DNA of 64,000 nucleotides from Macrostomum lignano. Lineage: Eukaryota. The stretch is taken from positions 186,001-250,000 of the forward strand of contig NIVC01000382.1 of assembly GCA_002269645.1 (NCBI GenBank), in the 5' to 3' direction. The notes below the pieces were generated by a model that saw nothing but the letters and a program-made list of their open reading frames with translations, searched no databases and was not told the DNA's origin. The stretch's first letter is position 1. Every line of letters starts with the position of its first letter. Positions 39,856 through 64,000 of the stretch are shown here, one piece after another. The translations under genes were made by a program, and so were the position numbers.

Positions 39856-40045
39856 TTGAAGCTCTTCTCGTCAAGTTTCCGTCGTTTTTTTGGTATGTGA
39901 GCGTATACTGTATAACCAAAAACTCGAAAGGACGTTACATTTGACTTCGTTTCGTACCACATTTCAAACGGAGTTATCAGTTCCTTAAGCGGATGTCACA
40001 ACTGAATTTTGAACATATGCCGCTGTGTTGATAGCTTCAGCCTAA
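39856..40045 (-). mobile_element. Ty1/Copia integrase C-terminal fragment
   Basis: AEAINTAAYVQN...ITPFEMWYETKSNVTSFRVFGYTVYAHIPKKRRKLDEKS matches the Copia post-integrase-core SH3-like signature (TPxExWxGxKP..LRVFGCxAYxHIP). Confidence 0.8.
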
Positions 40046-40619
40046 TACGTACGAGTAGTACAAAAACGGTACAGTCTGGCGCACGTCCAATCAGCGAGGG
40101 GGGCAAATCAATGATGAGGAGGCCCCGGAGGCGGGGCGGGGCAGGCCGGAGGTGGGGCAGGACAGAGGCGGGGGCAGACCGAGGGAAGGGCAAGCCTAGG
40201 GGTCGATCAGCCATGGTAGGGTCAAGCAGGCCCAGAGGTGGGGAGCAGGCCAGATGAGAGGTCGAGCAGCTGAGTGTCCGGTGAGTGTCCAAGGGTGAGT
40301 TTGAGTGAGTGTCCATTGGTGAGTATCCTCTATCCACGTGTGGTGACACGCAAGACAGAGTTTCAATGTGATCAGTCTGTAGGGGTCCGATTGCTTGGAA
40401 TTTCCGAGTAGAGGTATATAGTGGGGGAAAGGCTTCTATTGGTCAAGAAAGCATTTAGAAGGGTGCTGATTTTCTCGGAATTTACGAGTATTATGGGGAT
40501 GGGATTGTATTGGTCGAGAGGTCCCTGGTGCTCCGTGCAGAATTTGGATCCAGGACCCTTTATAAACTAAGCACCCGGATACATTGCACCCATCGATTTT
40601 TTAGATAAAATACAACATA

Positions 40620-43600: not shown

Positions 43601-43680
43601 CTGACCAGGCGCATCGCCCACTGGCGCTGCCCTTATGGAAGCATTAAGCACCCTATACTGTCTGGCTAATTTATTCATGT
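40620..43680 (+). pseudogene. polB: Polinton-type protein-primed DNA polymerase B, heavily frameshifted
   Basis: Endonuclease-VII-like HDHLNGK..CPECN; PVSFHNLRGYDMH; LRFLDSYQF; QKGVFPYSY; DANNLYG; KLLNNSLFGKTMENVRKR; GGDTDSFF; LRPKLYS; KAKGV-like QAKGVQ. Confidence 0.92.
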
Positions 43681-43689
43681 GCACTCTAT

Positions 43690-45025
43690 ATAATTCATAT
43701 CATGCATGTTCTCAAAAAAATTAGCCTGAAAGATTCCGCAATAATGCCAATCTGATACAAGCGTGCAATTGCCTCTTCAATTAATTACATTGGACAGACG
43801 CCATTGACTAAGAAGTAACCAAGGGGAAGCTTCCAGTTGCTTTTGAGTCCAACGGCTATAATTACAAGCGAAGAGGTGGCCTTTTCTTCAGTCACTGCTC
43901 CGTCGCCCTTGCCCACGTAGCCAAAGAACTTGCTTTCACAGGAATCCCATTCGATCAGCTTCTAAAGCGACATTTCATCTGCCACCACATTACAGTAGGC
44001 AAATGCTTCTGCACCAGGCGAGTTGCGTCGTCTTAAAAGCTCTTGGAAAGATAATTCGCAAAATCCGGGGAGACATTTGACATTTAATGTCCATCGGCGA
44101 AGTGTAGCAGGATGAGAAAGTTGAAAGTATTTACGGACATACTGGTACGCCTTTGCACTGTAAAGGTGCAATGTCGAGGCAAACCTCAGGAGAGAATTTC
44201 TTTGAGCGCGAATTCTTCTGGGACACCAAACTGTTAAGAAGAGAGTTGGATGCCAGAAAGTTCAGTCGCGAAGCCTCAGCTGCAGAAAGGATATTCTGTC
44301 CCTTTAGCGACGTGATCAGCTGAAGCAGTGATTTCGCCTTACTTTTTAAGCGCGAATTATTGGACCGCAGACGGCGAATTCTTCTACATTTTCTCTCCAG
44401 TTGCTCACGCGCAGGTTGCAAAGAACGGGTCATTACTTTAAAATCGTCACTTGCCTGTGTAAGCCTCCTGTACCGGCACCGGAGATTTTTCAAAGCCTTC
44501 ACTTTCTTGTTAAGTAGCTCCTTACTGACACAGTTTTGGTAGCAGTCATCAGCGGGTGCGGCCTCAGATTGAGGCTGATCCGAGGTTGCACTTTCCTCTT
44601 CAGCCAGCTGTCAGGGCGCGTTTTTCTCGGCATCTTTGATGAAGTTTGAGAAGTCGATTTGGCCAGCAGCAGCCGAAGTCATTGTCTTTCTCGTCTTCGC
44701 AGGAGTGCTACTCAAATTACTCGGGAAAATGGGAAAAATGGAGGGCACTGCTTTCGGATAGAGTCGCTTCCGTTCCAATGGCCGAAATCCTTCTACAGGT
44801 TGCACAAAACACTGGAGTAAAGTGCTCAGAGGATTTGAAATCTTTGCGGTTGAGAGCAGCTATCCATTTTTTCTTAACATCATTGTCCTTCGGGAAGGAG
44901 TGAAATGAGATTGCTGACGAACTTGAGGCCCTGTTGCTACAACCAAATGCTGTGCAGAAGTGACAGTTTCCTGGCTTATTAGCTTGCTGCATGGTAGGCT
45001 GATTGAATAATTTTTCGCTACACAT
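43690..45025 (-). pseudogene. THAP/P-element transposase 5' fragment
   Basis: THAP (CTAFGCSN...FHSFP...W...KAVPSIF); HLYSAKAYQYVR...HPATLRRW; VVADEMSL; WKLPLGYF. Truncated next to the pPolB remnant. Confidence 0.85.
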
Positions 45026-45056
45026 TCATCAGCTTTCTTAATTCATCAACCATATA

Positions 45057-46515
45057 CGAGGGGCATACTGAAAGTTTTGAGATACATCGAAACCACAAAT
45101 ATCTGAAGCAAAATTTCTGTCAAAATTTTTCGAAGTAGTTGCCGCCAGCTTGTACGCATTTCCTCATCCGGTGAAACCACTGCGTCCAGGCTCCAGCCCA
45201 CTGTTCTTCTGGCACTGCTGACACCACCCGCTCGAAGTCGAATCTTGCTGCTTCAGGGCTCTTAAACCGAGTCCTACGCAGTTGTTTCTTCACTAAGGGA
45301 AGAGAAAGAAGTCGCAGGGTGCCAGGTCAGGGGAATAAGCGGGATGCGTCACCAACTGGACTCCATTCTCGGCCAGAAATGCCAATGTTGCAGCAGCCAT
45401 GTGCGCACTGGCATTGTCGTGGTGCAGCAGCAGGCCACGAAATCCGGTGTACGCGGCCGGCGTCTGCGCCACGCATCGAACACAAGCAGCAGGCACTGGT
45501 TGATATACCAGTCGGCATTTTTTTATTAGAGGCAGGGGGGGTTGTGTGCACCCTGGCGCACTTTAAGCGACATAGGCACACAACCGGCGAGAGGCATTGC
45601 TGCCCATTCCGCCGACTCCCCTGAGCAGGCATACAAGCGCGCGGATACGTACGCAGGCACACACTCACACAGGAGTGTACAGCGGCCCTAACTTTATTTT
45701 ATCGTTAGGCATGTACACTTCACTGCGCCTTGGGGGGTTGGCTCTCAAGGCCGTTAATTGCACGAGCAGAGCCAAGCCGAGATTCCAATTCAGCCCCAAA
45801 TTAATGTGACTGCACTTGGAATCGAGCCTGGGTCGCTGGCACACCAGAGCAGCTGCGCTACCGCTGGGCTACGGCCCCCTTACCAGTCGGCATTGACTGT
45901 CCGTCTGTTTTGGAGCGCTACAGTTGCCAAGTGGCCAGCCTGGCTGAAGAAAGTCGCCACCATCCGCTTCCCGACGCTGCGGGCCCGTTTGACTTTCGTT
46001 GGGTGGCATCGTCCGGGAGGAGCCAAACTGCCGACTGCTGCTTGGTTTCCGGGTCGTACTGGTAGACCCAGGTCTCATCACCTGTCTTATCTTATCTCCT
46101 GTCTAATCTCCCAGCATCGCTTTAAGGTCCCAGAATTGAATCTTTCGAGCATAAACTCGCACCAACGCACCCTCTCCGCTTTCTGGTCTTCCGTCAGGTT
46201 GTGGGGCACCCAGCGGGCACACCGCTTGGAGGCTCCCAGCTTGTCATGCAGGATGGTCGTAACCGCTGCCGATCCAATGCCGAGAGCCTCTCTGATCTCT
46301 GCACAGGTCACTCGCCGGTCCTCGTCAATCATTCTTCGGACAGCAGCGATGTTTTCGTCCGTGACTGCGGAAGCTGGACGTCCCGTCCGAGGCTCGTCAT
46401 CAAGGCTGCTTCGGCCCCACTTACATTCGCTATACCACCGAAAAACTGTGGCACGTGAAGGGGCTTGGTCTCCAAAAGCAGCACGTAAACTTTCAACGGA
46501 TCGAAAAACTTTCAA
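45057..46515 (-). mobile_element. mariner (DD34D-type) transposon, 5'-truncated and split by a SINE
   Basis: WVPHNLT, DETWVY, HHDNASAH and YSPDLAPCDFFLFP motifs; terminus TA|CGAGGGGCATACTGAAAGT at 45055. Confidence 0.9.
45520..45880 (-). mobile_element. tRNA-derived SINE of 361 bp with a 14-bp TSD
   Basis: TSD TACCAGTCGGCATT at 45506-45519 and 45881-45894. Head GGGGCCGTAGCCCAGCGGTAG (A-box) and GGCTCGATTCC (B-box); 3' end AATAAAAAAA. Confidence 0.9.
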
Positions 46516-48921: not shown

Positions 48922-48999
48922 AGTAGTAGGGCGAATTATGATACTGCCGCACTAGCACTGGCGAGATAGGCGGCAATGCAAATGTATAGGGAAAAATAC

Positions 49000-50250
49000 A
49001 CTGCGGAGATATGAGCCCTATCTCTGTGCATTGGGGAGGGCTAAGCACTGCAGAGATATGAGCTCTATCTCTGTGCATTGGGGACGGCTAAGCACTGCAG
49101 AGATATGAGCTCTATCTCTGTGCATTGGGGACGGCTAAGCACTGCAGAGATATGAGCTCTATCTCTGTGCATTAGGGACGGCTAAGCACTGCAGAGATAT
49201 GAGCTCTATCTCTGTGCATTGGGGACGGCTAAGCACTGCAGAGATATGAGCTCTATCTCTGTGCATTGGGGACGGCTAAGCACTGCAGAGATATGAGCTC
49301 TATCTCTGTGCATTGGGGACGGCTAAGCACTGCAGAGATATGAGCTCTATCTCTGTGCATTGGGGACGGCTAAGCACTGCAGAGATATGAGCTCTATCTC
49401 TGTGCATTGGGGACGGCTAAGCACTGCAGAGATATGAGCTCTATCTCTGTGCATTGGGGACGGCTAAGCACTGCAGAGATATGAGCTCTATCTCTGTGCA
49501 TTGGGGACGGCTAAGCACTGCAGAGATATGAGCTCTATCTCTGTGCATTGGGGACGGCTAAGCACTGCAGAGATATGAGCTCTATCTCTGTGCATTGGGG
49601 ACGGCTAAGCACTGCAGAGATATGAGCTCTATCTCTGTGCATTGGGGACGGCTAAGCACTGCAGAGATATGAGCTCTATCTCTGTGCATTGGGGACGGCT
49701 AAGCACTGCAGAGATATGAGCTCTATCTCTGTGCATTGGGGACGGCTAAGCACTGCAGAGATATGAGCTCTATCTCTGTGCATTGGGGACGGCTAAGCAC
49801 TGCAGAGATATGAGCTCTATCTCTGTGCATTGGGGACGGCTAAGCACTGCAGAGATATGAGCTCTATCTCTGTGCATTGGGGACGGCTAAGCACTGCAGA
49901 GATATGAGCTCTATCTCTGTGCATTGGGGACGGCTAAGCACTGCAGAGATATGAGCTCTATCTCTGTGCATTGGGGACGGCTAAGCACTGCAGAGATATG
50001 AGCTCTATCTCTGTGCATTGGGGACGGCTAAGCACTGCAGAGATATGAGCTCTATCTCTGTGCATTGGGGACGGCTAAGCACTGCAGAGATATGAGCTCT
50101 ATCTCTGTGCATTGGGGACGGCTAAGCACTGCAGAGATATGAGCTCTATCTCTGTGCATTGGGGACGACTAAGCACTGCAGAGATATGAGCTCTATCTCT
50201 GTGCATTGGGGACGGCTAAGCACTGCAGAGATATGAGCTCTATCTCTGCT
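49000..50250. repeat. 47-bp near-perfect tandem array (about 26 copies) with an internal hairpin, in the putative left terminal region
   Basis: Unit GCACTGCAGAGATATGAGCTCTATCTCTGTGCATTGGGGACGGCTAA; period measured from 49045 to 49092. Only two single-base variants were noticed within the core array (near 49173 and 50167). Confidence 0.97.
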
Positions 50251-50588: not shown

Positions 50589-51362
50589 ATGGACATCTGT
50601 GAAGGCTATAAGGCACAAGTCCAGGAGTTTGAAGGACAAAATTTTATCGCTATTCGCAAGTTTTACCGACACGGCAGCACGGCAAGTCTGAAGCCAGGCG
50701 TCCCAGGATTCAACCTGAATCTTCACCAATGGAAGAAATTGAAGGAGGTGAAACGCTCACTTGTGATTTCTGCACGCAACAACAAGCCCAAGGTCGTGAA
50801 ACTCGGCTTCGATAAGTTTGTGGAAGTCAAAGGCGGCATCATTTGGCTCAAACGGCTGCCGGAAGATTGCTGCGAGGAGTTTTTGAGACGAAACGCCGTA
50901 CCACTGACTCCGCCGCTGTGGCAGAAGCTCTGGAAAATCGCCTCCTGGATCGACGGTCAGCTGGTGGCTCCCTTGAGGAACTCAATGCAGTACGAGCTGG
51001 AGTCTGATGAGGAAGAGGAGGAAGAGGACAAGAAGCTCAAGTTGGAGGCTGACCAGGACACGAAGCCCATAATGGAGACTGATGAGGGCGGAGAGCATGC
51101 TGATGACGAGGACGTTAGCTCGCCCACAAGGCCGCGCATTGTGACTGAGCCTATCACATCCACACCGATACCTTCGGTTGATTCTGATGCTGGACTGCTT
51201 CCGCAGCGGGACACCAACCTTGAGGAAGATCCGGTGTGGTATCAGTTCAGGGCGCATGCAGCGGCTTCGACGGTGAGCAGCAGCAGCAGGAAGCGAAAGC
51301 TGCCATTTCAACTTCGTCGGCAGGACGCGATGAGGCTGCCCAATGTTCGCTTTGATAACTGA
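50589..51362 (+). CDS. PC4/SUB1-like ssDNA-binding protein, probably with two PC4 domains and an acidic tail
   Basis: VQEFEGQNFIAIRKFY...LKPGVPGFNLNLHQWKKLKE resembles the PC4 core VREFKGKVLIDIREYW...[20 protein letters not shown]. A second, weaker repeat is LGFDKFVEV...VPLTPPLWQKL. The 257-aa ORF is intact. Confidence 0.8.
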   Translation: MDICEGYKAQVQEFEGQNFIAIRKFYRHGSTASLKPGVPGFNLNLHQWKKLKEVKRSLVISARNNKPKVVKLGFDKFVEVKGGIIWLKRLPEDCCEEFLRRNAVPLTPPLWQKLWKIASWIDGQLVAPLRNSMQYELESDEEEEEEDKKLKLEADQDTKPIMETDEGGEHADDEDVSSPTRPRIVTEPITSTPIPSVDSDAGLLPQRDTNLEEDPVWYQFRAHAAASTVSSSSRKRKLPFQLRRQDAMRLPNVRFDN

Positions 51363-51659
51363 ACAGCTAGAATGCTTTGAATGCATTGGACTAACTAAAT
51401 TACTTTTAGCTTGCACATGATTATCCAGCCTATATCTGACGGCACTATGCTGTTTTTTATCTGTTTTTTCTGAAATGCTGGTGTGCGAGTGTTTTAGTGT
51501 TCGTTTTTATGGATTGTTTGCTTTCGGAAAATACACCGACTTTTACGATGTTAGAGGTTTCAATCTGACAGTAATAAATTAGTTTGCCACTCGTTTCTCT
51601 ATCATTTAATTGGAATATAAATTTCTACTTAAGAAAAAATACTGTACAGCTAGAGCAGG

Positions 51660-52730
51660 TGGATAGGCACGTATCTTGATAACCGGCTAGTTTTTCTTGT
51701 GCCTCAAAGTTGCTGCATGAAGTGAGGCAAAGAGGTGATCGGATATCTGCAAAGAGCATTGAGCAGTGGCTCAGCGAGCAGCCAGTGCACACTCTGCACA
51801 AGCCAGCTAGGAGGCGATATCCAAGAGCCCCAATCATAGTGCGCGCAATCGATGATCAGTGGGAACTTGACTTAGTGGAAATGATTCCATTCGCAAAGCA
51901 TAATAAAGGCTACAAATATATTCTCACATGCATTGACGTGCTCTCAAAATGTGCTTGGGCCAAGGCACTGAAAAATAAAACTGCCACAGAAGTGAAGTCA
52001 GCATTCGAGAGCATACGCGCTCGTACTGAGAAGTTCAAAGCGCCAGCCACGCACAGTTCGCACAGATCAGGGGAAGGGATTTATCAACTCCACTTTCCGT
52101 CAATACTGCATTGACAGAGGGATTCTGGCTTTCCCAACTAACAGCGAGCAGAAGGCAGCTGTCATTGAGCGATGGAATCGGATTCTGAAAAGTAGAATGT
52201 GGCGCTACTTCACCTACAAGAGCACACTGCACTGGCTTGATGTGCTGCCTAAGCTGGTAAAATCTTACAACAATACTTACCACAGAAGCATCAAAATGGC
52301 ACCCACTAGTGTCTGCAAAGAGAATGAATCTGAAGTGTGGATGAACCTGTACGATGGAAAAGCAGTCGAGACTCTAGAAAAATTAAAGAAGCCTAAGTTC
52401 GCTGAAAACCAGTCAGTAAGAATTTCCAATGCTTTACGGCTATTCAAAAAGGGATACAAAGCGAGCTGGAGTGAGGAAGTGTACACCGTGGTGAGCAGAG
52501 CCCCAAAACATTATCCCTACATGTACAAGATTAAAGACATGCGGGGGCAAGAGATTCGAGGACTCTTCCATGAACACGAGCTGCAGGCTGTCCCAGACTC
52601 ACAGCGGCTGTATGTGATTGAGAAGATCCAGAAAACGGAGAAGCGGAAGGGAAAAATTCGCTATCTGGTGAAATGGGCGGGCTACGACTCGACTGGCTGG
52701 GTGGATGAAAAAGACTTAAGAAAGGTTTAG
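51660..52730 (+). pseudogene. Polinton retroviral-like DDE integrase with C-terminal chromodomain, frameshifted
   Basis: QWELDL, CIDVLSK, TDQGKGF, VIERWNR, YLVKWAGYDSTGWV. Frameshifts near 51683 and 52015 (about 10-bp insertion). Confidence 0.93.
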
Positions 52731-52749
52731 CTTTGGCACATCCCTCATC

Positions 52750-53722
52750 TTGAAGTTTATCATTATAATGCGAACTATTTTGATTAACAGTGAGCATGCT
52801 GAAGGTACTCCTTGTGACTTTAATTTTTACCTGCCTTCACCTATTTACTTGGATCGAAATGTGGACTATGAGGCAGGTCTGGCTGAAATCCATCTGCCTG
52901 CTGCATGGTTCAAAGTTGACGAGCCTTACTGCTTCACTGTCTCAGATGGAAGAGAGCATGAGGCCCTGGTTCTTCAACCCGGACGCTTTGCTAGAGTGGA
53001 GGAGCTGGTGGAGCGCCTGAATGAGCTGCTGGCCAACTCTGATTCGCTGTTCTTTGATGCAATGAGTGACAGGGAGTCTGAGATGGAGGCTGATGAGTCC
53101 GGCCTGATGGGGCGTAGTGGCAACAGGGAATTTGGTATGAAGTTCGAAATCCGCAACTCATGAACTGTGGTGCACAACAACACTGCGAGAGCAGAGCTGT
53201 TTCTTCCATCTAGTAAAATTCTGCATTGGCTGGGATTTGGAAACCAGGCTGTGAAAATCCAGCCAGGGAGCCGCGTGTCCGAGCATTGCACTGGCTGCCC
53301 GCGCACCAGCTTAATCAATGTGCACTGCAGTATCGTTGAGTCAACTAATTGCAACTGGAGCTCCTTGTTGAGAACAGTTGGAATGAAAGCCGGCATTGAA
53401 TGGGGCAACTATCAAACAAAAATATTTAAGAAAAATATTTATTTTCCCGATTCAACGAATCAGTCTTCTTCACAGCATTCGAGTTCAGCTCCGTGACATC
53501 TATGGTTGCCCACTGATTGCACAGACTCACAGCCCTGTTCTGCTTACAGTTCAAATTCAGGAGAAACCATTCAATGAACTACCAGCAGCTAATCCAGCAA
53601 TATTCGGGGGTGAGGACAGGACACGAAAAGCCTGCACTCTATGGCTGTGGGAGCTTCCCAGGGATCATGACATACCAGCCTCCGCCAGCGGCTATATCAT
53701 CATCATCAGCCTCGACGCTTAG
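52750..53722 (+). pseudogene. Polinton minor capsid (penton-like) protein with an internal stop and a frameshift
   Basis: TPCDFNFYLPSPIYLD..YEAGLAEIHLP N-terminus; INVHCSIVE; SIRVQLRDIYG C-terminus. TGA at 53161-53163; frameshift near 53400. Confidence 0.75.
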
Positions 53723-53945
53723 CAACGTCAGGCGCAAAAGAAATACTGAAGCAAGTCCGAAACGATTGAAGAAAAAGAAAGGCACCCGAAAGGCAACTGG
53801 TGGAAATCGCAGTAAGAGGTCGAGCAAGGCTAGTGGGAAAAAGCTTAAGAATAGGAAGACGAAAGCAAAGAAGAATAGAGCAGGCGGAGGAAAGCAAAAA
53901 GTCAGCAAGAAAACTGTGAAGCGCGTGCTCGACCCTCTGTCATAG
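53574..53945 (+). CDS. Small, highly basic (K/R-rich) core/DNA-condensing-like protein
   Basis: C-terminal half is very K/R-rich; lies between the capsid genes; LYGC-G fits the adenain consensus (M/L/I)xGx-G. Confidence 0.55.
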   Translation: MNYQQLIQQYSGVRTGHEKPALYGCGSFPGIMTYQPPPAAISSSSASTLSNVRRKRNTEASPKRLKKKKGTRKATGGNRSKRSSKASGKKLKNRKTKAKKNRAGGGKQKVSKKTVKRVLDPLS

Positions 53946-53947
53946 AC

Positions 53948-54850
53948 ATGGCTTACGGATTCAATCCCAGACTTGATTTATTTAAGACGCCCGTTCTACA
54001 AACCTGCATTGAAAAAGCTACTTATGTTGATATTCACCCAGTTAATTCCATTGTTGCAAACTCTCCCATTGAATTTGACTGCCACCAATCTGCCGATGAA
54101 TACACAGATCTGCTGAATTCTTTTCTTTATAGTCGCTGCCGCCTTGTGAGACTGGATGGGGGTTTGCTGAGGGAGGATGTTCGAGATGGAGATGGCATCA
54201 TCACCGAGCGCAGAGACAGTGACGTGCACCCAGAAAATTTTGTTCTGTCTACAGTCTTCTCAGATGTAATTGTGAGCATTAACCAGCGAGTGGTGTCTGG
54301 TGGAGACCAGCTCTATCCCTACCATGCGTACTTCAAAGCACTAATGAGCTCATCCGATGCCCAGCAACTATAACTTTACCCTGCTGGCTTCCTGGAGCCG
54401 AACTCGGCAGCTGAAGAGCACACGGAGAGCCACAGGGAATCCCGATGGATGGAGTATGCGGGACCGCTCTTCAGCGATGTTTTCCAGTGCCCAGTGTTTC
54501 TGCTAAGCAATCCGCACTTGCACATCAAACTGGTGCCCAGCGATGGGGCCTTTGCCATCAGAAGCCCGAATGCAAACAACGCGGCATACCGAACGGAAAT
54601 CTCTCACTGCATTCTGCATGTTCGCCGAGTCAAAGTGGTGCCCCACATCAGCCTGGCCCATGAGCAGGGGCTGACAAACCAAAATGCACTGTATCCCATC
54701 GAGCGAACTGAAATGCAGAACTTCATCCTACCCCAGGGTATTCAGTCAAAAAACATTGAAGGATTCACTCATGGAAAATTGCCGAAGTTCATCATGCTGG
54801 CCTTCGTGAGCCACCGAGCATTTAACGGTCATCATCACGCACCGAGAGCT
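53948..54850 (+). pseudogene. Polinton major capsid (double jelly-roll) protein with an internal stop and C-terminal deletion
   Basis: LDLFKTPVLQTCIE...PIEF...YTDL..SFLY; QLYPYHAYF; LHVRRVKV; ALYPI; LPKFIMLAFVSHRAFNG. TAA at 54371-54373; the expected C-terminal region is absent. Confidence 0.87.
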
Positions 54851-54877
54851 TTTGCTGGACTATTCATCTTAATTGAC

Positions 54878-55390
54878 ATGGATGCAATTCAACTACTTAA
54901 TCTCGCCAGAAAATTTTTGCCTTACCAAAAATTTCTCATAGTTACTTTACATTTGCGCTATAAAAATTCTCTGCCCTTGAATGTAAAAAGAAAATTTAGA
55001 TCATCAATTTCCTTTGAAAACAAGTTTGTTTTTGTCCTACTTCAGCACAATGGCTCATTTGGTCACTGGGTGGTGTGCTATGTTGGGCAAGGAAATCGCA
55101 TTGAGTTGTTCAACTCCCTCGGCTGGGAACCTGAAATTTTATCTTTGGTTTATAATTTGTTTCGAGAGATTAAAACAACTGGCTTTTGGCTCCGAAGCAA
55201 TATAAACAGAGTTCAATGTGCTAACTCTAATAAATGCGGAATGTTTTGCATCTATTTTGCTTATCAAAAGTTTCTGTTCGATCGGTCATTTGAGGGGATT
55301 TTGAAGCATTTGCATGCTAATGAAAAAAATCATTTGAATGATAGAATCTTACAGAGGTTTGAAGCCAACTTAAGAAAAAGATGTCCGTGA
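54878..55390 (+). CDS. Adenain-like cysteine protease, currently in frame with the MCP remnant
   Basis: GHWVVCY...ELFNSLG...RVQCANSNKCGMFC gives the H, N (usually D), Q and C catalytic layout. Probable start at MDAIQLL. Confidence 0.87.
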   Translation: MDAIQLLNLARKFLPYQKFLIVTLHLRYKNSLPLNVKRKFRSSISFENKFVFVLLQHNGSFGHWVVCYVGQGNRIELFNSLGWEPEILSLVYNLFREIKTTGFWLRSNINRVQCANSNKCGMFCIYFAYQKFLFDRSFEGILKHLHANEKNHLNDRILQRFEANLRKRCP

Positions 55391-56061
55391 TTTCTAATAT
55401 TTATGCATTAAACATGGGAGAAAAGCAAGCTTGCTACGATATCCGCCTCAGGCAGGGAAGCTGCATGATTGTCTGCGGGCCCACCAATGCAGGAAAAACA
55501 ACCTTTGTCAAACACCTGATCCAGTACAGAGACGTCATGTTTGATGTGAAGCCTGGCAGAGTTCTGTGGTACTATGGGATCTCACAGGCAGGCCATGCAG
55601 AACTGAGCAGCCTAGGTGTGCAGCTGCGCCAGGGATTTCCCACCAACATCGAGGCAGCACTTAGGCCCAATGACCTGGTTGTTTTCGATGACTTAATAGA
55701 GGAAACTTCAAACTCTGCTTCAATGCGAAATTTTTTCACAGGAATCGCACATCACTTGCCGTGCTTCTTGGTGATGCTGACTCAGAATATATTTTTCAAG
55801 GGAAAAGAGTCGCGAACAATGAGCTTGAATGTAATGTATTTAGCTATCTTGAAAAACCCCAGAGACCAGCTGCAGATTGCAGCACTGGGCAGGCAGTGCT
55901 TAACAGAGAAGCCCGGCTTTCTGCTGTCAGTGTTCAAGCACGTGACCGCGCAGTGCTGGGGAGCCTACCTGTTCCTGGGTTTTCATCCATCAACTCCCGA
56001 TGAGCTGCGAGTGCGGGCCAGAATTTTACCCAACCAGCGACCCCATCTTGTATTTGCTTAA
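55381..56061 (+). CDS. A32-like FtsK/HerA genome-packaging ATPase
   Basis: Walker A GPTNAGKT, Walker B LVVFDD, LTQNIF and KNPRD motifs; intact 226-aa ORF. Confidence 0.92.
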   Translation: MSVISNIYALNMGEKQACYDIRLRQGSCMIVCGPTNAGKTTFVKHLIQYRDVMFDVKPGRVLWYYGISQAGHAELSSLGVQLRQGFPTNIEAALRPNDLVVFDDLIEETSNSASMRNFFTGIAHHLPCFLVMLTQNIFFKGKESRTMSLNVMYLAILKNPRDQLQIAALGRQCLTEKPGFLLSVFKHVTAQCWGAYLFLGFHPSTPDELRVRARILPNQRPHLVFA

Positions 56062-56072
56062 GAAAGTGAAGC

Positions 56073-56435
56073 TTGTTTTTATCAGCTATTGTTTTCATCG
56101 CAATGGAAGTGTTTGATTCACATGCAAGTCTGTTTGCGGTTCTTGCGTCACCTAAATATACCGTGCGCTTCAAGCGGCTGTTGATAAAAAATTGTCCAAA
56201 AGAAGTGCGTTATTTTCTTGTCGAGGCCTGCCATAATCTCTTACAAAACAATCTGTCGTTTTCGCTCGATGAAAAAGCTGTTCTTGCAAAGTCAAAAGAG
56301 ATAATTCGAAAAATTACTCAGCAGAGAAGAAAGACAGACTTGTTGAAGGCTGGCTTCATCAAAATACTTCTGCTTAAGCTGGTAAAGAAGAAGAAGCAAA
56401 ATGAACAAATTTTCAGAAATGGTTCTGATTTCTAA
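56073..56435 (+). CDS. Small Polinton-associated hypothetical protein
   Basis: LLIKNCPKEVRYFLVEACHNLLQNNL..DEKAVLAKSKEIIRKI resembles small ORFs that follow the Polinton ATPase; tightly packed with its neighbours. Confidence 0.6.
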   Translation: MFLSAIVFIAMEVFDSHASLFAVLASPKYTVRFKRLLIKNCPKEVRYFLVEACHNLLQNNLSFSLDEKAVLAKSKEIIRKITQQRRKTDLLKAGFIKILLLKLVKKKKQNEQIFRNGSDF

Positions 56436-59222
56436 AGCAGAGTATGAGATGTTGATGCAGAATTTGAAGCCAAATGAAACTACCACTGAAGCTGACTTGA
56501 AGCAGGCTCAGAAGAAATGCGATGACATCTTGAATGCCGAGGATTGTCCAGAAGATGTGAAAACCGCCATGTACCAAAGTGCAATGCAAAGTTTGCTGGC
56601 CAAGCGCAAGCACGCTGGAAAAGAAGGAGCACGCAATACTGAAGCCAAGTTGATGAAAACAGAGACACCCCAGATAAGCACCTGGGAAGAGAAGATCAGC
56701 AAGTCGGTGCCACAGAAATTCAAAACCAGGGCTCGCAGTCTGTGGACGATCCTGTCCACCAATCCAGAGCTGATTCGAGTTTGTGAAAACGGGGAGGTGG
56801 AAATCACAGGCATGTCAATCCCTTCCTCAAACATACTGGACTTGATTCAGCACACAGTGAGGGATTCGCCATGTGAGCGTGAACCAGTTGGGTGAAACGA
56901 GTTCATCGATTTTCTGCAGCAGAAAAAGCCTAATGTTCCGCTTTCCGCTATTTGATGTAACCGCCCTTGTCGCCTGTCCGCTCCGTAGAGAGACGAACGC
57001 ATGACTAGAGGGGGCAATGACCGTAGGCTGCCTATGACCGGGCAACGACCTGACGGACCTCCAGCACCAGACTGTCCCGCCCACATGATTAGTAGCTTTT
57101 GGTAGCGCTTCGTGACCAGAGGGCCAAGGACCCACATGGACCCCACCTGTAGCCAAGGTGCAATAGTTGGTCACTCGGTCATGGTATGACCGAGTGGCTG
57201 CCACCACTCTATGTGACCTGGCGCACCTGGATCTTTCTACCAGACCTCTCGAGGCTAGAGCCCCGCCTGGATTGGTTACCAGGGGATTTAGGCTAACAGG
57301 GGAGACGCATGCAGCCGAGTACAGGGACTCTGCTTGGGGCATGATCGGGAACTCTGGGCTCAATCCTGGAGGATTTCTCAGCAGGGGATCCTTTGTGGCT
57401 GTGAGCGAGGCTAACTTGCGACTTTGATTACTAAGAGTAGTATGAGGCGAACATGTACTGTCTCTAGTTTAGATTGCTCAGGGCGAAGGGACGCGTCAGC
57501 ATGGGGTTGCAACCTTCCTACTGCCATTCTGTGCCAAGACTCGCTAATCCCTCCACTGCACGCACACGCGGCCCCGCAGCACGCACTCACAGGCGGGCTT
57601 TGCACGGGGAGAGGCCATTAGCTTACCCAAACTCCCTTATGCTTTGCCACCCCAGGAGAAAGGCTTAGCACGCCATGAGTTAAATGATGGTGAAAGATGG
57701 AATAATGATAAAGTTAGTTAATAGTTAATAATTAGGCCCTTAGGCGAATAATCAGGCAATTAGGCGGCTTCACTGTTGAGTAAAATACAGCAAAAGATAC
57801 GGTATCACAATTGGCTCAGCTCTCTAATCAGACAATGGAAAATAGGCAAACCCCGGATAAGCAAAGGCAATTAGAGCACAAATTAGTAACCCGATTAGCT
57901 GCACAGAGAGAGAGAGAGGCGGAGTGACCGAGGGCGGCTGTAGGCTGCAGTCAGGCAGATGGTGAAGCGGCGATGCGCTGAGGCGACGAGGCGCTGATGC
58001 AGATCAGGCGATGCTGATGATGCTGGGCGGTATCAGACCGCTGGCCGATGGGCGAGCTCGCTTGGGGAGCTAAGGATAACTTGACGGTAACAGACCGCGG
58101 ACCGGCAGGGATTCGTCTAATAGACGAATGGGTCAGAACTCAGTCTGACGGCAAGTCTAAAGAAAGACTAGGAGCCCGAAGGTGGGCAGAAGTTGAGGAT
58201 TCTCATGCCGAAATCGCCTCCTTTTATAGACCTCACAGCCGCCTCCTCAAGGTCGTTACCATGGCTCCCTCTCTCTGATTGGCTGCCGGCAGAATGACGT
58301 CAGAATGAGTCATGATGAGAAGCATGAGACCGGCATAGCAACATGAGAAATCGGGAAATTGCGCAATCCGGAGGTGGGGTGGGGGGATAATTGGCGCAGC
58401 GGGTGGTCGCGAAAGTGTTGCGCAAGCAAACATTGAGAACAATAGGGCTGGGGTCGAGAACAAAGGAATTGGAAATCGGGGATAATTAGGGAAAACTGAG
58501 AACAATGGAAAAGTAAACATTGGAGAAAAGGTGATAATTAGGTGCGAAAACGAGAACAAAAAAAAGAGAAAATCGGAGAAAAGGTGATAATTGGTGGGGG
58601 TCGAGAGAACAAAAGAATCAAAAACAAGAACAATAGAAGCGGAGGTGGGGTGGGTGTCGCATGAGAAATTTGGGGAGGAGAACAATGGCATGAGAGAAGG
58701 TTGCGCAAGAGAGGGAGATGAGTCATCGATGAGTCATCGGGGGGAAGAAGGGGTCACACGACTTGCGTCACCGTTTGGGAGTTTGGGAGGGGATGGGGAG
58801 ACGGTGAGCACACAAAATACTGTAAGTAGACACAGAGAAGGAGGGGACAGCGCAGGAAAAGAGTGCAGAGAGAGACAAAAAGAAGGGGGGAAGGGAAAGT
58901 ACAAGAAGAATAGGGTGGAGTGCAGGGGAGATAAGGTAGAGGGAAAGGTACAGAGAGGGACAGGGAGCTCCGGAAAGGCAGGTGTGGCGGCAGGGGAGAC
59001 GGAACCAAGGCAGTGAGAGGGGGGCAGCAGAGCGGGAGTCTCCAGGCCTGGGCGGAGACCTGGCTGAGTCTCGACAGCTCTGTGCAGAGGGTACACGGGA
59101 TAGGAGGCACTTTCGAAAAAGTTCCCATGCCCTATCCCGCGACCAGAGCGTGGTTACATCATATTGGTAAATCAGTTAAGAAGAAAATGGCAACCAGCAG
59201 AGGGAGTGAACTGGAGAAATAA
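56401..59222 (+). pseudogene. Polinton hypothetical protein split by a solo LTR (coding 56401-56952 and 59166-59222)
   Basis: Removing the LTR restores ...EPVG*NEFIDFLQQKKPNVPLSAI|GKSVKKKMATSRGSELEK* in frame. The TGA at 56893 is probably a mutated TGG. Confidence 0.75.
56953..59161 (-). mobile_element. Solo LTR of 2209 bp
   Basis: Termini TGATGTAACC...GGTTACATCA; 4-bp TSD TATT (56949-56952 and 59162-59165). Minus-strand TATAAAA near 58225 with CCAAT, CRE (TGACGTCA) and AP-1 (TGAGTCA) motifs upstream. Confidence 0.85.
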
Positions 59223-59240
59223 CAGGAGAGTCTAGTCAAG

Positions 59241-61411
59241 CGCGGACTCCGGGATTATAAGCAGCTGGACTGGAAGGCTAAAAATAACCCATACCACAAG
59301 GGGGCATTAGTTTCCTACACAGCTTATCTGCAGAGGGGCATGAATTGCTAATACAAATCACATAAATAGACACGTGCACAACGGAAAAGAAACACTTTGC
59401 AACAGTGGAAAAAGCAAAAACATTGCTGACAAGTCACTTAATCTGAAACCGAGGCCAATCCGCAGTTAATTATGAGTAGGAATCGGCAGACTGACTGGAG
59501 AGCTTCGCAATCTTCCGCTTCCTTCCGCGCTCCGAATCGCCAGAAACTTCCTTAGCCAGGTTCTTCATCATGCAGTTGAAGAACGCTTTAGACAATCCTG
59601 TCTTCACATCATGTCCATGGGTGCATGTTGTGAGGTGGGACAGCACAAAAACAGGCTGTCCAGTTACTTCATCCATGAAGCAAGGGTTGAAGTTGTTGCC
59701 GCACAGGCCTCTGACAAACTTGCGGTTGACTGCGGCATTATCAACGCACACTGCACAAACGGTGAAATTCAACTTTCTTAAGACACTCATCGCCTGGTGA
59801 AACCATTCCGTAAGTTTCTTCGCAGTCAATGTTGCAACGGCATGCATCGCAATCATGTCCTTGTATTGACTCGCTACAGAGCGGATCATGAAGCAGTAGA
59901 GTGTCTTTGCTGTAGCTCCATCTGCATCCAGTCCATTCAACTGACCATTGTTGTACTCAACCCGATTGGCAATGTAGATCTCATCGATCGCAAGGACGAC
60001 AACTTTCTCAACTTGTTCAAGCTTAGATGCCCGAAGTTTAAGATAGCCTTCGTTATCCAGACCTACCTTAGAACCAACTCTAGCTGTGATGGACCTCAAA
60101 GTGCGATCAGATGGCAGACAAAGTGCCTCCTGCTCCAGCATGGTCTTGTATGCAGCGGCACTGATTGAGTAAATTAAATACGCAAAAACGAGAAGCTCCT
60201 GCGAGTACCTGCGAGCAGAGGCTGGCTTCCTACTCAACTTCAATTGCTCCAAAGCAAAGCTCACCGTTCGGTTATCTGCCAGCTCTTCCACCTCTTCTAA
60301 CAGGTCTTCAGCCATATCCAGCAGATGCGAAACTTTATCGTCAGACTCGGCCGTATCCTCCTTCAAAATCTTGATTCTCGACATGATGTTAACAAGCTGG
60401 CTAAGGGTCGAGACCTTGCCATTAGTCAACAGATCGACAAACCTATTCATCTTCAGAGGCATTCTACGGAATCCACATGTGACGGTGAGGTCTTCAGCCA
60501 AGCAAATATAGCACGCAACATGAAAATTGGGCTCCATCTCGAGCATGTAAATGCACAGCTTGCCGTCACACAGAGAGAATTGAAAACCTGCTGGCTTACT
60601 CTCCTCCTGATCAAGTCTGGAGCGCACGTCGTGTAGGCTGCAATCAGCAATTGAGTCGGCTTCCTGAAAGGTGTCGATGCTGCTTTGCAGGGCACTGAGT
60701 TCCCGCTCCAGACGTTCAGAAGTCGCCGCTGTTGATCTCTGCGGCTTTTTTTCAGAGGACAGGTAGGATGGAGCGTTGGGAAAGATGGACGGCACAGCCC
60801 CTTGTTTCAAAAGGCGTCTTAGTAGTTGCTCCTTGCTCTTCTTACGTGCGACGTTTGTATCCATGGAACTTTCAACGAAGTCGTCCGGATGAAAATGTCT
60901 GGAGCAAATCCTTGAGCTTTTTGTTGGCTCAAACTCCTGCCTTGGGTTGGCTCGCTTCCACTTTTCCAGAAGGGCGGGGTCCTTCCATGGAAAACTATGG
61001 AAGCTGACTCCTGCGACAGTTCCATTTGCTCGATTTGAGCATCCGTACGCTGAGCAAGCCTTCACCATAAGTGGTCTTCACTCTCAGAGTTGATCAGACA
61101 ATTATGAGTGCTAGTTAGCAAAAACAAGGAGAGATCGTTTTTAGGACATGCTGTACAGTGCAGCGATTCTTGTAGTCCACTATAGGCCACAACCCCGGCC
61201 GAAATACGAACAGGGACGAATTGGAATGTACATTGTAGAGAGAGCTTTTTAGTGTACAACGAAAGCTTTCCTTCCCTCGTGGAACAAACACCCCGACCCC
61301 AAGCCCCCAACTGGGGGACAGAAGGGAGAAGCAGTGCCCCCCTGTGGTATAGGGTGGAAAATAAAATTATCTCTCCTTCCAGTCCAGTTGCTTATAATCC
61401 CGGGGTCCGCG
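59241..61411 (-). mobile_element. Internally deleted P-superfamily element, 37-bp TIRs, 7-bp TSD
   Basis: TIRs at 59241-59277 and 61375-61411 (35/37 identical, beginning CGCGGAC). Exact TSD AGTCAAG at 59234-59240 and 61412-61418. Confidence 0.9.
59470..61068 (-). CDS. THAP-domain P-type transposase derivative with an in-frame internal deletion (532 aa)
   Basis: THAP CSAYGCSN...FHSFP...W...ICSRHF...AVPSIF; LPSDRTLR; LAIDEIY; VCVDNAAVN; then a jump from PVFVLS to the C-terminal HLTTCTHGH...RKIAKLS. Confidence 0.88.
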   Translation of the reverse strand: MVKACSAYGCSNRANGTVAGVSFHSFPWKDPALLEKWKRANPRQEFEPTKSSRICSRHFHPDDFVESSMDTNVARKKSKEQLLRRLLKQGAVPSIFPNAPSYLSSEKKPQRSTAATSERLERELSALQSSIDTFQEADSIADCSLHDVRSRLDQEESKPAGFQFSLCDGKLCIYMLEMEPNFHVACYICLAEDLTVTCGFRRMPLKMNRFVDLLTNGKVSTLSQLVNIMSRIKILKEDTAESDDKVSHLLDMAEDLLEEVEELADNRTVSFALEQLKLSRKPASARRYSQELLVFAYLIYSISAAAYKTMLEQEALCLPSDRTLRSITARVGSKVGLDNEGYLKLRASKLEQVEKVVVLAIDEIYIANRVEYNNGQLNGLDADGATAKTLYCFMIRSVASQYKDMIAMHAVATLTAKKLTEWFHQAMSVLRKLNFTVCAVCVDNAAVNRKFVRGLCGNNFNPCFMDEVTGQPVFVLSHLTTCTHGHDVKTGLSKAFFNCMMKNLAKEVSGDSERGRKRKIAKLSSQSADSYS

Positions 61412-61462: not shown

Positions 61463-61471
61463 GTATATAAG
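61463..61471 (+). promoter_or_regulatory. TATA box GTATATAAG upstream of the DEDD-like/TBP block
   Basis: Identical to the 9-mer at 50476; lies 42 bp before the ATG at 61513. Confidence 0.65.
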
Positions 61472-61512
61472 AAGGTGGACTGACTCCGAAATTTTCGAAG
61501 GAAAGCTGCATC

Positions 61513-62020
61513 ATGAACTACATTGACTTCCAAGGATTCCCGTGCAACAGCACAAGCAAAAAATTTGTTGTGAAGGAGTTGGCAGTTGTTCAAATCAGAG
61601 CGGGAAGCTACCGCATTGCTCACCATGTGTACGCACCTCCGTATCCATGGGAGAGAGTCTCACCTGACATGCGAGTTTACTACAGACGGCTATCTAAGAG
61701 TCTGCACCAGTTTAAGTGGAGTGATGGAACCCGTCCGTACATGGAACTGGCGGAAGACATTCTGAGCATTGCCAGTGGTCCGATCTGGTCAAATGGGGAA
61801 AGGAAGTCGATTTTTCTGACTGAGCTGCTTGGAAGACAGGTTTATAACCTAGAAGATTTGGGAGCACCTTCGATTGAAGATTCAGATACTGGCTGTGCAG
61901 TGAGAAATTCATTGCTGCACTACAGTCGGCTTAAGCCAAAGTTCTGCATCAACTTAAGAAGCGAGCAGTGTCCGTGGCACACGAGCAGTAAAGTTGGCAG
62001 AAGCAGATTTGGTGAAGTAG
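61513..62020 (+). CDS. DEDD/DnaQ-like exonuclease-fold protein (Polinton accessory); 3' end probably frameshifted
   Basis: YIDFQGF...FVVKELAVV...HQFKWSDG...VYNLEDLGAPSI. The track's extension to 62364 over TBP looks like read-through. Confidence 0.55.
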
Positions 62021-62032
62021 TTGACGATCGAA

Positions 62033-62605
62033 ATGAGCCCACCAGCTACAGCCCTAAGAGTGACCAATCTGGTTGGCGGAGTAGATCTGAGACTGGATGG
62101 TGGCAGGGGCGCTCAGCTGCCTCTACGGGAACTGGCTCTCAGCATGGCTCATGTGATCTACCGGCCCGTCTGGCCCCGGGTGCTCATCAAGCGGATGCGG
62201 ATTCCCAGAGTGACTCTCCTACTCTACCCTACTGGGCAACTGAGCATCTGCGGTGCCAAGACCCACACAGACGCCAAAAGGGCTGCCCGTCGCTTCGTGG
62301 CTATGCTGCATCGGAGAGTGCCGGCTCAACTGCTGCCTCATCAAACAATTTGTGTTCGAATTAAAACTATTACTGCTCATGGACAGCTCCCAGTTCATTC
62401 CGCACTTTCCTTATTAATGTTAAAATCAATTATCCCAAACGCCGAATATGAACCAGAATCCTTTTCTGCTTTAATTTTCAATTTAAACTTTTGTAAATGT
62501 CTGCTTTTTCACAGCGGCTCTTTTGTTCTCAGTGGAGCTCGGTCCTTGAATCAGTTGCATACCGATAGCATGCGTCTACTCAATGTAGTTCTTTCCATTG
62601 AATAA
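62033..62605 (+). CDS. TBP: TATA-binding-protein-like, core only, 190 aa, intact
   Basis: Two TBP repeats: TNLVGG...YRPVWPRVLIKRMRIPRVTLLLYPTGQLSICGAK and YEPESFSALIFNLNFCKCLLFHSGSFVLSGAR (compare YEPELFPGLIYR...LLIFVSGKIVLTGAK). AATAAA overlaps the stop at 62601-62606. Confidence 0.88.
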   Translation: MSPPATALRVTNLVGGVDLRLDGGRGAQLPLRELALSMAHVIYRPVWPRVLIKRMRIPRVTLLLYPTGQLSICGAKTHTDAKRAARRFVAMLHRRVPAQLLPHQTICVRIKTITAHGQLPVHSALSLLMLKSIIPNAEYEPESFSALIFNLNFCKCLLFHSGSFVLSGARSLNQLHTDSMRLLNVVLSIE

Positions 62606-63187
62606 AAATAAAAGTCAAGTCAAGCAATTTGCCGGAAATATTTCAATGATTAGTGAAAAGTGAATAAAAGGATAAACTTGATATTCTTTACATTCATTTT
62701 CCCAGGCAGACAGCTATGGAACACTTCAAAAACGTATTTAGCCCATCACCAAAAGTATCGCAAAACGCATATCAAATCCGAAAGTAAACAATACTACCAT
62801 CGTTATAACAAACGATGTGCACCGAGAGAAGAGAAATAGAAAAGTGATAGAGAAAATATGATTAAAACGCTGATTGAATTTACAGGAACAATTTATGTCA
62901 GATAAAAACCAAAAACACATTTTAAACAAGTAGTACACAAAGCAAACAAAAATGAATTAATATTGTATGAGCGCACTTGCGACAGCTTTATAAAAAGTAA
63001 AACTTAAATTGATATCAATATTTCACGCCGCAAAAACAAATTGACAGCTAAATCTAGCGCAATTAGCCAAGCATACAAATTTGTAAAAGTTACTACATGC
63101 AAGTCACTACATTTTAAAACAGAATTTGGCAATTTAAACAACTCTAAAAGCAAGAAAAAGTACTAAACAGTCTGTTAAACACCCGCA

Positions 63188-64000
63188 CTAGACCAGTCGG
63201 ATGCGCTTCAGCTGATCGTGGGATGCGGGCGTCAGCGCATAGTGTCCGTAGGGCAGGCTTCGATTACTGCTAAGCCACACTCGCTTATCCTCCCACACCG
63301 ATAGGCTTCTTTTCTCCATTACCGACGTGAAGATTTCGTGTTTCTTGGAAACAATCGCTGTCATGGCAACCATCTGCTCTTGCTTGGACTCGAACGCGTC
63401 GACATAGTTCGCATGCGAAATTTGCTGTCTTACTACTGACTGCTTCACGCCTTTGGCAGTTTTCTTGATCTTTGCACTCGAATTCTCGGCAGGGAGAAAC
63501 GAATAAAGTTTTGGACGCAAAAGAATCCACTCCTGGTAAATTCCACCAGCAGATTCATCTTTAACGCAGCCCAGCTTTCCTTTTAACTCTTCAGAGAAAT
63601 GCGGATGGTCTCGAGAATAGTTGGATGTGTCAAGTATTTTTTCCTCTCTAAGCTTCGGGATTACCTCCGATGTTAAATCATGATTCTTGAAAGCTAGAAA
63701 AAATGAGTCAGTATCACCTCCGTAAAGCATCATGTCTCTGGAACCGTCTGAATGACAGAACAGCGGTCGGAGCCTGTCATACAGTAGGCTGTACATGGCC
63801 ATCTTAGAGAGATCGAGAACTGCCTGGCCAACGAAAATGGCCTTGTCAAGCGTGAATTTATCTTTTTGAGCTGAAAAATGCTCAACGACTCATTGATAAT
63901 CGAGAATGCGGCACAGTTTGGTCGAGAGGCGCAAGTTTCTGCTTGAGTCTGGTTAGTGCAAATTCGAACATCGCATCTTTTTCGAACGTTCTCCATAGTT
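63188..64000 (-). pseudogene. polB: Protein-primed DNA polymerase B, C-terminal part, frameshift near 63820, continuing off the window
   Basis: MENVRKR, VGQAVLDLSK, YGGDTDSFF, LGCVKDE, LRPKLYS, KTAKGVK, EDKR, LPYGHY. Confidence 0.93.

Follow-up and report, generated by a model that had tools for sequence, protein, structure and literature searches.

Locus and TBP gene

We analyzed a 64,000-nucleotide (nt) stretch of Macrostomum lignano DNA (GenBank assembly GCA_002269645.1, contig NIVC01000382.1, positions 186,001 to 250,000; hereafter the window), which contains a Polinton carrying a gene for a protein of the TATA-binding protein (TBP) fold. The Polinton starts at position 48922 and ends approximately 5 kb past the window end, and its flanks are terminal inverted repeats with AG termini, as in Polinton/Maverick elements. 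The preliminary description of this DNA had claimed an intact, intronless, core-only TBP-like open reading frame (ORF) within the element, with its own AATAAA, and both points are confirmed. It had also placed the gene between a DEDD-like gene and a convergent gene for protein-primed DNA polymerase B (pPolB). The gene does lie in the element with pPolB convergent, but the DEDD-like ORF overlaps it rather than simply preceding it. The features at the locus are as follows.

48922..49105, + strand: left terminal inverted repeat, starting AGTAGTAG; partner at G000:C382:254962-255144, 98.9% identical over 183 nt
61513..62364, + strand: DEDD-like ORF, 283 amino acids (aa); its 3'-most 110 codons share DNA with the TBP N-terminal repeat, with TBP in the +1 frame relative to it
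61953..61960, + strand: CTTAAGAA, approximately 80 nt 5' of the TBP ATG and inside the DEDD-like ORF; candidate autoregulatory promoter
62033..62605, + strand: TBP-fold gene, 190 aa, two repeats, intronless, intact ORF
62601..62612, + strand: two AATAAA polyadenylation-like hexamers at the TBP stop, 62601-62606 (containing the stop) and 62607-62612
63188..64000, - strand: 3' end of the convergent pPolB gene, which runs on past the window

The TBP ORF matched Pfam PF00352 with two repeats (E=1.2e-24), consistent with the two-repeat saddle fold. Its AlphaFold model had a predicted local distance difference test score (pLDDT) of 74.6, with residues 21-48 below 50, and in Foldseek it aligned with solved TBPs at template modelling (TM) scores of approximately 0.76-0.79. 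A Macrostomum lignano protein on record is 99% identical to the window TBP. Four Polinton lineages of this genome, families A (that of the window element) to D, were examined, and all four carry a TBP-fold gene.

Residue map of the element TBP

We mapped residues on the core of the host TBP, the spacing of which fits the yeast numbering without gaps; residue numbers and roles are those of yeast TBP. The window TBP retains N69, F190, F207 and E186-P-E188, and carries the substitutions R98-F99 to W-P, F116Y, V122S, T124C, N159T, V161T and P191S. Only F190 and F207 are thus kept among the four intercalating phenylalanines (F99, F116, F190, F207), the F99 position being a proline preceded by tryptophan. 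The base-reading asparagine pair N69 and N159 is likewise incomplete, with Thr or Ser at position 159 in all 17 element-type rows. The same 17 rows keep F190 and E188 and have an acidic residue at position 186, so that the acidic C-terminal stirrup is present, judged from sequence, as E-P-E in families A and B, E-S-E in C and D-A-E in D. The TFIIA-side residues N91 and E93 are lost. The DNA-face changes are fixed, not decayed: IKTIT and YPTGQ are common to A, B and relatives outside this genome. The map bears out the earlier account of a C-terminal repeat with both phenylalanines and the YEPE stirrup, and of an altered N-terminal repeat with W-P at the F99 region and Tyr at F116, and a change of N159 to Thr. 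By its residues, the window protein is a TBP-fold homolog and not a canonical TBP.

Copies, selection and origin of the element TBP

A genome search with the window TBP returned at least 152 matches of 38-100% identity in many subfamilies; 150 of 234 candidates were scored, so that 152 is a lower bound. The group at 38% identity is family B, in which the core order is the same and the PC4 and pPolB genes are at swapped ends relative to A. Identities between A and B are 56% for integrase, 49% for pPolB, 43% for capsid, 39% for ATPase, 37% for TBP, 29% for PC4, 28% for the DEDD-like protein and 24% for protease. The value for TBP falls within the 22-56% spanned by the other common genes, which fits its inheritance with the element. 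Selection was estimated by pairwise Nei-Gojobori comparison of natural copies (21 pairs; several C-half dS values were saturated and undefined). Compared with the two more distant subfamilies tested (L081, L048), the N-half gave a dN/dS of 0.11-0.16 and the C-half one of 0.21-0.23; overall, the non-overlapped C-half ranged over 0.07-0.23 at near-saturated dS.

Host TBP is 29% identical to the window TBP. The genes for host TBP and TRF2 (G000:C70:669709-670365 and C350:633341-634513) are each found on three contigs. Both are also intronless, so the absence of introns is uninformative on origin. In quick trees, which carried long-branch warnings, A and B fell outside the group containing host TBP, and an approximately unbiased (AU) test under LG+G4, on the 23 rows retained out of 52, rejected a clade of A and B with host TBP (p=0.0004, with a long-branch caveat). 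A profile search of 1.84 billion representatives gave eight matches at E<=1e-30, comprising four Macrostomum gene models, one plant tandem TBP and three unnamed proteins. Further relatives of the element TBP occur in outside assemblies (P0002-4, P0006-8, P0023); linkage to Polintons was seen within this genome. The 26 loci from a metagenome scan were all generic TBPs at 23-30% identity, and five IMG/VR scans (TBP A1, A2 and A5; capsid as single sequence and as alignment) returned no relative.

A retrocopy of host TBP is ruled out by the many subfamilies, the dN/dS of approximately 0.1-0.2, the 29% host identity and the rejected host clade. The grouping with host TBP and the absence from related elements that the preliminary description expected of a processed pseudogene were both contradicted. 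The element TBP is a real, selected, element-borne gene.

The DEDD-like frame over the TBP gene and a junction between its repeats

The overlap covers the first 110 TBP codons. In family A, 54 of the 56 loci with both ORFs called (a few of them being one and the same copy) keep the DEDD-like frame open for 323-335 nt into TBP; in family B, 11 of 28 loci keep it open for 389 nt, and in the others it is broken or shortened. Within the overlap this frame has no stop where 3.0-5.8 are expected (P 0.0004-0.04 by codon pool), and over the remainder of TBP it has 4-9. Selection in the overlap tracks the TBP frame and not the DEDD frame, and the tail sequence is not conserved for its own sake. A fusion of the DEDD-like protein with TBP, present in one gene model on record (P0019) and at three family B loci, was treated as an indel product, since the two frames differ in the standard arrangement and TBP is equipped with a separate ATG and motif.

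The label 'DEDD' itself, taken over from the preliminary description, found no support in Pfam or PDB, and a word search was also without a match. The Atlas matches of the DEDD-like protein were unnamed eukaryote clusters, most commonly arthropod, at 0.95-0.97, with a Maelstrom lead at 0.88. The clusters nearest to its domain are unnamed eukaryote proteins of 167-181 aa that have no tail. The first acidic motif of this domain (window 61513-62000) is D-x-Q in A and D-x-E in B, and the family A domain may be inactive.

We considered a passenger origin, in which a host TBP gene was captured and its frame has stayed open owing to the DEDD-like ORF that overlaps it and to the amplification of copies. 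The lack of introns (common to host TBP and TRF2), the many near-identical copies and the overlap of half of the gene with another ORF are what such a passenger would display. The purifying dN/dS in the C-half, which lies outside the overlap, largely refutes this explanation, and the preference for the TBP frame within the overlap, the AU test and the relatives in outside assemblies also argue against it; we regard it as very improbable.

The TBP gene also contains a recombination junction. The change-points between four compared elements place it as follows.

62330..62390, + strand: approximate recombination junction between the TBP repeats (change-points in codons 96-119)

The ATPase, DEDD-like and TBP N-half DNA of these elements is 95-99% alike, and the C-half is 63-75% and pPolB 58-61% alike; the C-half and the pPolB arm differ between subfamilies. 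The chimeric TBPs remain open, and the N-half moves with the motif-bearing block. PC4 moves from element to element without the TBP N-half moving along with it.

TATA-variant motifs upstream of element genes

Candidate promoter sites in the window precede many genes of the element on the same strand.

50589..51362, + strand: PC4-domain gene at the left end of the element (PF02229, E=3.8e-8)
51628..51635, + strand: CTTAAGAA upstream of integrase
51683..56952, + strand: core block with integrase-chromo, putative minor and major capsid, adenain-like protease, ATPase, 110-aa and 230-aa ORFs
52715..52722, + strand: CTTAAGAA upstream of the putative minor capsid gene
53425..53432, + strand: TTTAAGAA upstream of a basic 123-aa ORF
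53844..53851, + strand: CTTAAGAA upstream of the putative major capsid gene
55369..55376, + strand: CTTAAGAA upstream of the packaging-ATPase-like gene
56057..56064, + strand: CTTAAGAA upstream of the 110-aa ORF
61464..61473, + strand: TATATAAGAA, 5' of the DEDD-like ORF; matches canonical TATA and WTAAGAA; the site given as GTATATAAG in the preliminary description

The preliminary description had proposed GTATATAAG (61463-61471) as the target of the protein. A variant TATA does exist, but this site, in front of the DEDD-like ORF, is one instance of WTAAGAA, and the TBP gene is preceded by a separate CTTAAGAA. In family A, WTAAGAA precedes the integrase, minor capsid, basic ORF, major capsid, ATPase, 110-aa ORF, DEDD-like and TBP genes, and in family B most of their counterparts. 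The sense/antisense counts were 6-10/0-2 in six A blocks and 6/0 in four B blocks; shuffles averaged 0.8-1.7, and at most 1 of 200 reached the observed count. Family C uses ATAAATA (10/0 in two blocks) and family D TATAAG[C/T] (5-8/0-1 in five blocks). There was no cross-enrichment: each motif is enriched solely in the blocks of its own lineage, with A and B sharing WTAAGAA.

In the best-assembled block of each family, the sites located 15-150 nt before an ORF start numbered 7 of 8 (A), 4 of 6 (B), 10 of 10 (C) and 5 of 7 (D), where such positions make up 12-21% overall; frameshifted copies score lower, down to 3 of 8. The motif-to-start distances cluster at 30-60 nt. Several sites fall in coding ends, where the family A Leu-Arg pairs are TTA-AGA in 4 of 20 cases against approximately 0.4 expected by codon use. 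Canonical TATA boxes precede the PC4 gene and a 448/444-aa gene. Upstream of TBP itself, CTTAAGAA is present within 120 nt of the ATG in all 58 family A loci scored; all 19 family B loci instead have a canonical TATAAAAG. Many of these copies are near-identical.

The motif could instead be a late initiator of the baculovirus type, (A/G/T)TAAG, serving the polymerase of a helper virus, with a minor or separate role for TBP. Virophages borrow giant-virus promoters in this way, TTAAG and ATAAG fit the baculovirus consensus, the family D TATAAG contains ATAAG, and a few sites are close to the ATG. Against this explanation, which we hold to be improbable, family C uses ATAAATA with TAAG unbiased (sense/antisense 17/16 and 17/13), the site distances cluster as described above, every lineage examined has kept its own TBP, and no helper virus was seen, though no search was aimed at one.

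TBP genes in the divergent families C and D

A search with the ATPase revealed further Polinton lineages, from which 10 regions of families C and D were taken. Their capsid proteins are 28-31% identical to that of A, and their TBP-fold frames are very divergent. The splice-site-like features at the start of these frames, described below, have the following approximate coordinates.

Family C: G000:C4:381074-381145; C261 ~120120-120310
Family D: C84:1065770-1066126; C1975:198735-199350; C362:551250-551475

The Pfam TBP scores were 2e-7 for C84, 7.5e-7 for C362 and 1.2e-4, just below the cut-off, for C4; the C1975 frame had no Pfam match, yet it is 40% identical to that of C84. A family D model reached a pLDDT of 92 and a TM score of approximately 0.73 to TBP, with an alignment that included other TBPs and so favoured that fold. 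The nearest Atlas clusters of the family D protein are mostly viral TBPs. The C and D genes have 91 and 83 matches in the genome, respectively. Such homologs are easily missed, one being below the Pfam cut-off and one having no match, and TBP may be under-annotated in Polintons generally.

The C and D frames have no ATG and start at a splice-acceptor-like site. In the ORF upstream, the codon position of a donor-like site is conserved (GTAGG for both subfamilies of C; GTGAGT, GTAAGT and GTAAGC for three of D), with spacers of variable length. These sites lead us to predict that the C and D TBPs are made as alternatively spliced fusions to the upstream protein; the upstream proteins of C and D have no detectable likeness to each other. 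In family D, a P-loop domain that we take to be deoxynucleoside-kinase-like from its motifs follows TBP, in frame in C362 (549868-551250) and as a separate ORF in C1975 (200050-200649). One family C element has a Fic/DOC gene (G000:C4:378764-379543, E=8e-14) behind the ATAAATA family motif.

No PC4 match was found in the 10 C and D regions searched, some incomplete, all of which have TBP genes. With this, the distance of approximately 11 kb between PC4 and TBP in the window, the opposite ends that PC4 occupies in A and B and its exchange independent of the TBP N-half, the transcription-initiation module of PC4 and TBP that had been proposed is unsupported.

Structure of the window copy

Two further features interrupt the element in the window.

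56953..61411: 4.46-kb insertion, not in sister copies, splitting the 230-aa ORF
59470-61068, - strand: THAP/P-element transposase ORF inside this insertion

The core block of the window copy is partly broken, with approximately 350 nt lost near the end of a putative capsid gene; its TBP is intact despite the insertion and this deletion. A 6-bp target-site duplication is present in sister copies C254, C291 and C114, and there is none at the window copy. The pPolB (PF03175, E=7e-14) and rve integrase (PF00665) genes were above cut-off in sister copy C130, to which those of the window are homologous. The adenain protease was above the Pfam cut-off in a sister copy, and the packaging ATPase had only weak P-loop/A32 matches. 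The capsid ORFs had no match in Pfam or PDB, and their names, minor and major, are putative and follow gene order and size.

Inside the left inverted repeat (window 49000-50250) are expanded 47-bp tandem repeats, the units of which vary by subfamily. To the left of the element, window positions 40001-46498 hold a separate decayed pPolB segment, 97-98% identical to G000:C13:148763-154859 and 67% like the family B pPolB. Between assembly copy L118:1-9941 (G000:C530) and run contigs there are indels of 1-2 letters at 12 or more positions, the majority of these 12 seen in three or four of the four runs; many apparent frameshifts may hence be assembly errors. The contigs of these four runs (three of guessed RNA type and one of no known type) cover all 30 bins of the sister element evenly, intergenic parts included, so that RNA is indistinguishable from DNA in them.

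A proposed late-gene factor

In the established TBP structure, the C-terminal repeat contacts the 5' half of the TATA box, and the 3' half falls to the N-terminal repeat. We predict, with a probability of approximately 0.62, that the element TBP is a late-gene factor which recognizes the TATA variant of its element and works with host TFIIB and RNA polymerase II (Pol II). Genes with a canonical TATA (PC4, the 448-aa gene and family B TBP) would be read first by host TBP. The element TBP would then bind WTAAGAA before the integrase, putative capsid, ATPase and TBP genes, in family A also boosting its own gene, and its retained acidic stirrup would recruit host TFIIB and Pol II. The conserved changes N159T, V161T, V122S/T, T124C, P191S/T/N and F116Y and the loss of F99 are predicted to admit C or T at positions 1-2 and G at position 6: reading of the 5' half would loosen with P191S/T/N, N159T and V161T, and V122S/T with T124C would create space for G. 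P191 favours T at the first TATA position (PMC12529657) and the stirrup glutamates bind TFIIB (PMC7221094). A genome search for TFIIB (PF00382) gave 15 matches on seven contigs, none inside an element, although a divergent TFIIB could escape it; given the glutamates kept in all lineages, host TFIIB is the likely partner.

Several observations weigh against this prediction. Inspection of upstream regions or k-mer rankings guided the choice of motifs, for which the shuffle test makes no correction; the subfamilies are related, so that motif counts are not independent; and the comparison covers TBP-carrying Polintons only. A and B share WTAAGAA though their TBP N-terminal repeats differ strongly, and the match of TBP to motif is not one to one. 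A few sites, 6-21 nt from the nearest ATG, are too close for a -30 box, and the protease and 230-aa ORF are among the core genes without an exact site. ATAAATA and TATAAG are near canonical TATA, and host TBP could read them. The change of F116 to Tyr and the loss of F99 could weaken DNA bending; by our mapping of L5.1 in PMC7221094, viral TBPs mostly have Phe at the F116 position. Most viral TBPs are also accompanied by their own TFIIB (PMC7221094).

If host TBP or TFIID did read the motifs as weak TATA boxes, the element TBP might be a decoy for the TBP regulators Mot1, NC2 and TAF1 or a TFIIB competitor that damps host or early genes. The near-canonical TATATAAG, TATAAATA and TATAAG, the basic helix 2 retained in family A (equivalents of K133, R137, R138 and R145; isoelectric point (pI) 10.4-10.9) and the strict retention of just two intercalating phenylalanines are in line with such a role. 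We consider it unlikely, since the main family A site CTTAAGAA is a poor host TATA box, the DNA-face changes are fixed in A, B and the outside relatives, and family B has the same DNA face without the basic helix 2. Of the two functions suggested in the preliminary description, redirection with altered specificity is the best reading, given the altered DNA face and a matching variant TATA, and dominant-negative shutoff is less likely.

Comparison with known systems

The closest parallel to a late-gene factor of this kind is in the herpesviruses, where KSHV (Kaposi's sarcoma-associated herpesvirus) ORF24, EBV (Epstein-Barr virus) BcRF1 and HCMV (human cytomegalovirus) UL87 are TBP mimics with TATT late promoters (PMC12529657, PMC4893493). 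These beta/gammaherpesvirus systems share with the element a viral TBP fold, no RNA polymerase of their own and a variant TATA before structural genes. The mimics are large, bind Pol II directly in a six-protein complex and have four phenylalanines without the TFIIB glutamates, whereas the element TBP is a bare 190-aa core with glutamates kept, two phenylalanines and another motif, in an integrating element of 15-20 kb. The Pol II-binding N-terminal domain and five partner activators of an ORF24-type viral pre-initiation complex are absent from the 190-aa ORF, which is core only. The comparison is one of fold; the element TBP may work like ORF24 but is not a member of the herpesvirus system.

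TBP-like proteins of Nucleocytoviricota are similarly divergent, two-lobed and viral, and the best BFVD match was the Heterosigma akashiwo virus TBP (TM 0.67). They mostly have their own viral TFIIB and a diverged stirrup (PMC7221094), whereas the element TBP is at most 18% identical to them, with no element TFIIB found and a host-like stirrup. Host TBP and TRF2 (C70, C350) share with it the fold, N69, F190, F207, E186/E188 and a basic pI; beyond its low identity to host TBP, it differs in the missing N-terminal extension, the fixed DNA-face substitutions and the loss of N91/E93.

By the preliminary description, earlier documentation of TBP in this Polinton group would have counted against its claim. 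In part such a record exists: a TBP-like gene is labelled on a MELD-virus map of the adintovirus study by Starrett et al. 2021 (legend of Fig. 5, PMC8502044), the label, in the section covered, coming without selection, motif, function or element name; none was found for this Polinton group. Macrostomum is unmentioned in the text and the one supplement file of that paper that were searched. The TBP in PMC10675990 belongs to mirusvirus-like elements, and TBP and TATA terms are absent from PMC11161782, PMC11131425, 10.1101/2023.08.22.554363, 10.64898/2026.06.19.733378 and 10.64898/2026.10.13.758929. The literature search, with figures, Repbase and subscription papers outside its scope, found no report on selection of a Polinton TBP or on lineage-specific pairing of TBP and motif. 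The finding is partly new: this genome contributes four lineages, side by side, that differ in TBP surface and in motif, together with the DEDD-TBP overlap, the junction within TBP and the splice forms predicted for C and D.

Implications

Polintons encode no RNA polymerase. A TBP of their own, paired with a promoter variant, would give them a concrete mechanism for controlling capsid genes, testable in a laboratory flatworm; if true, it would be a counterpart of late transcription in herpesviruses, in a genome approximately one tenth as large. The four coexisting lineages form a natural series on the reprogramming of TBP specificity. More broadly, and at somewhat less than even odds, animal Polintons may use a private late-transcription code, in which every lineage has a TATA variant matched to a minimal TBP of altered specificity and borrows TFIIB and Pol II from the host. 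Such a code would insulate coexisting lineages from each other and from host TBP, with TBP switched on differently by lineage: through the overlap and self-activation in A, through a canonical TATA box in B and through alternative splicing onto an upstream gene in C and D. It would explain the timing of capsid expression in polymerase-less integrated viruses and would provide natural orthogonal TBP/TATA pairs.
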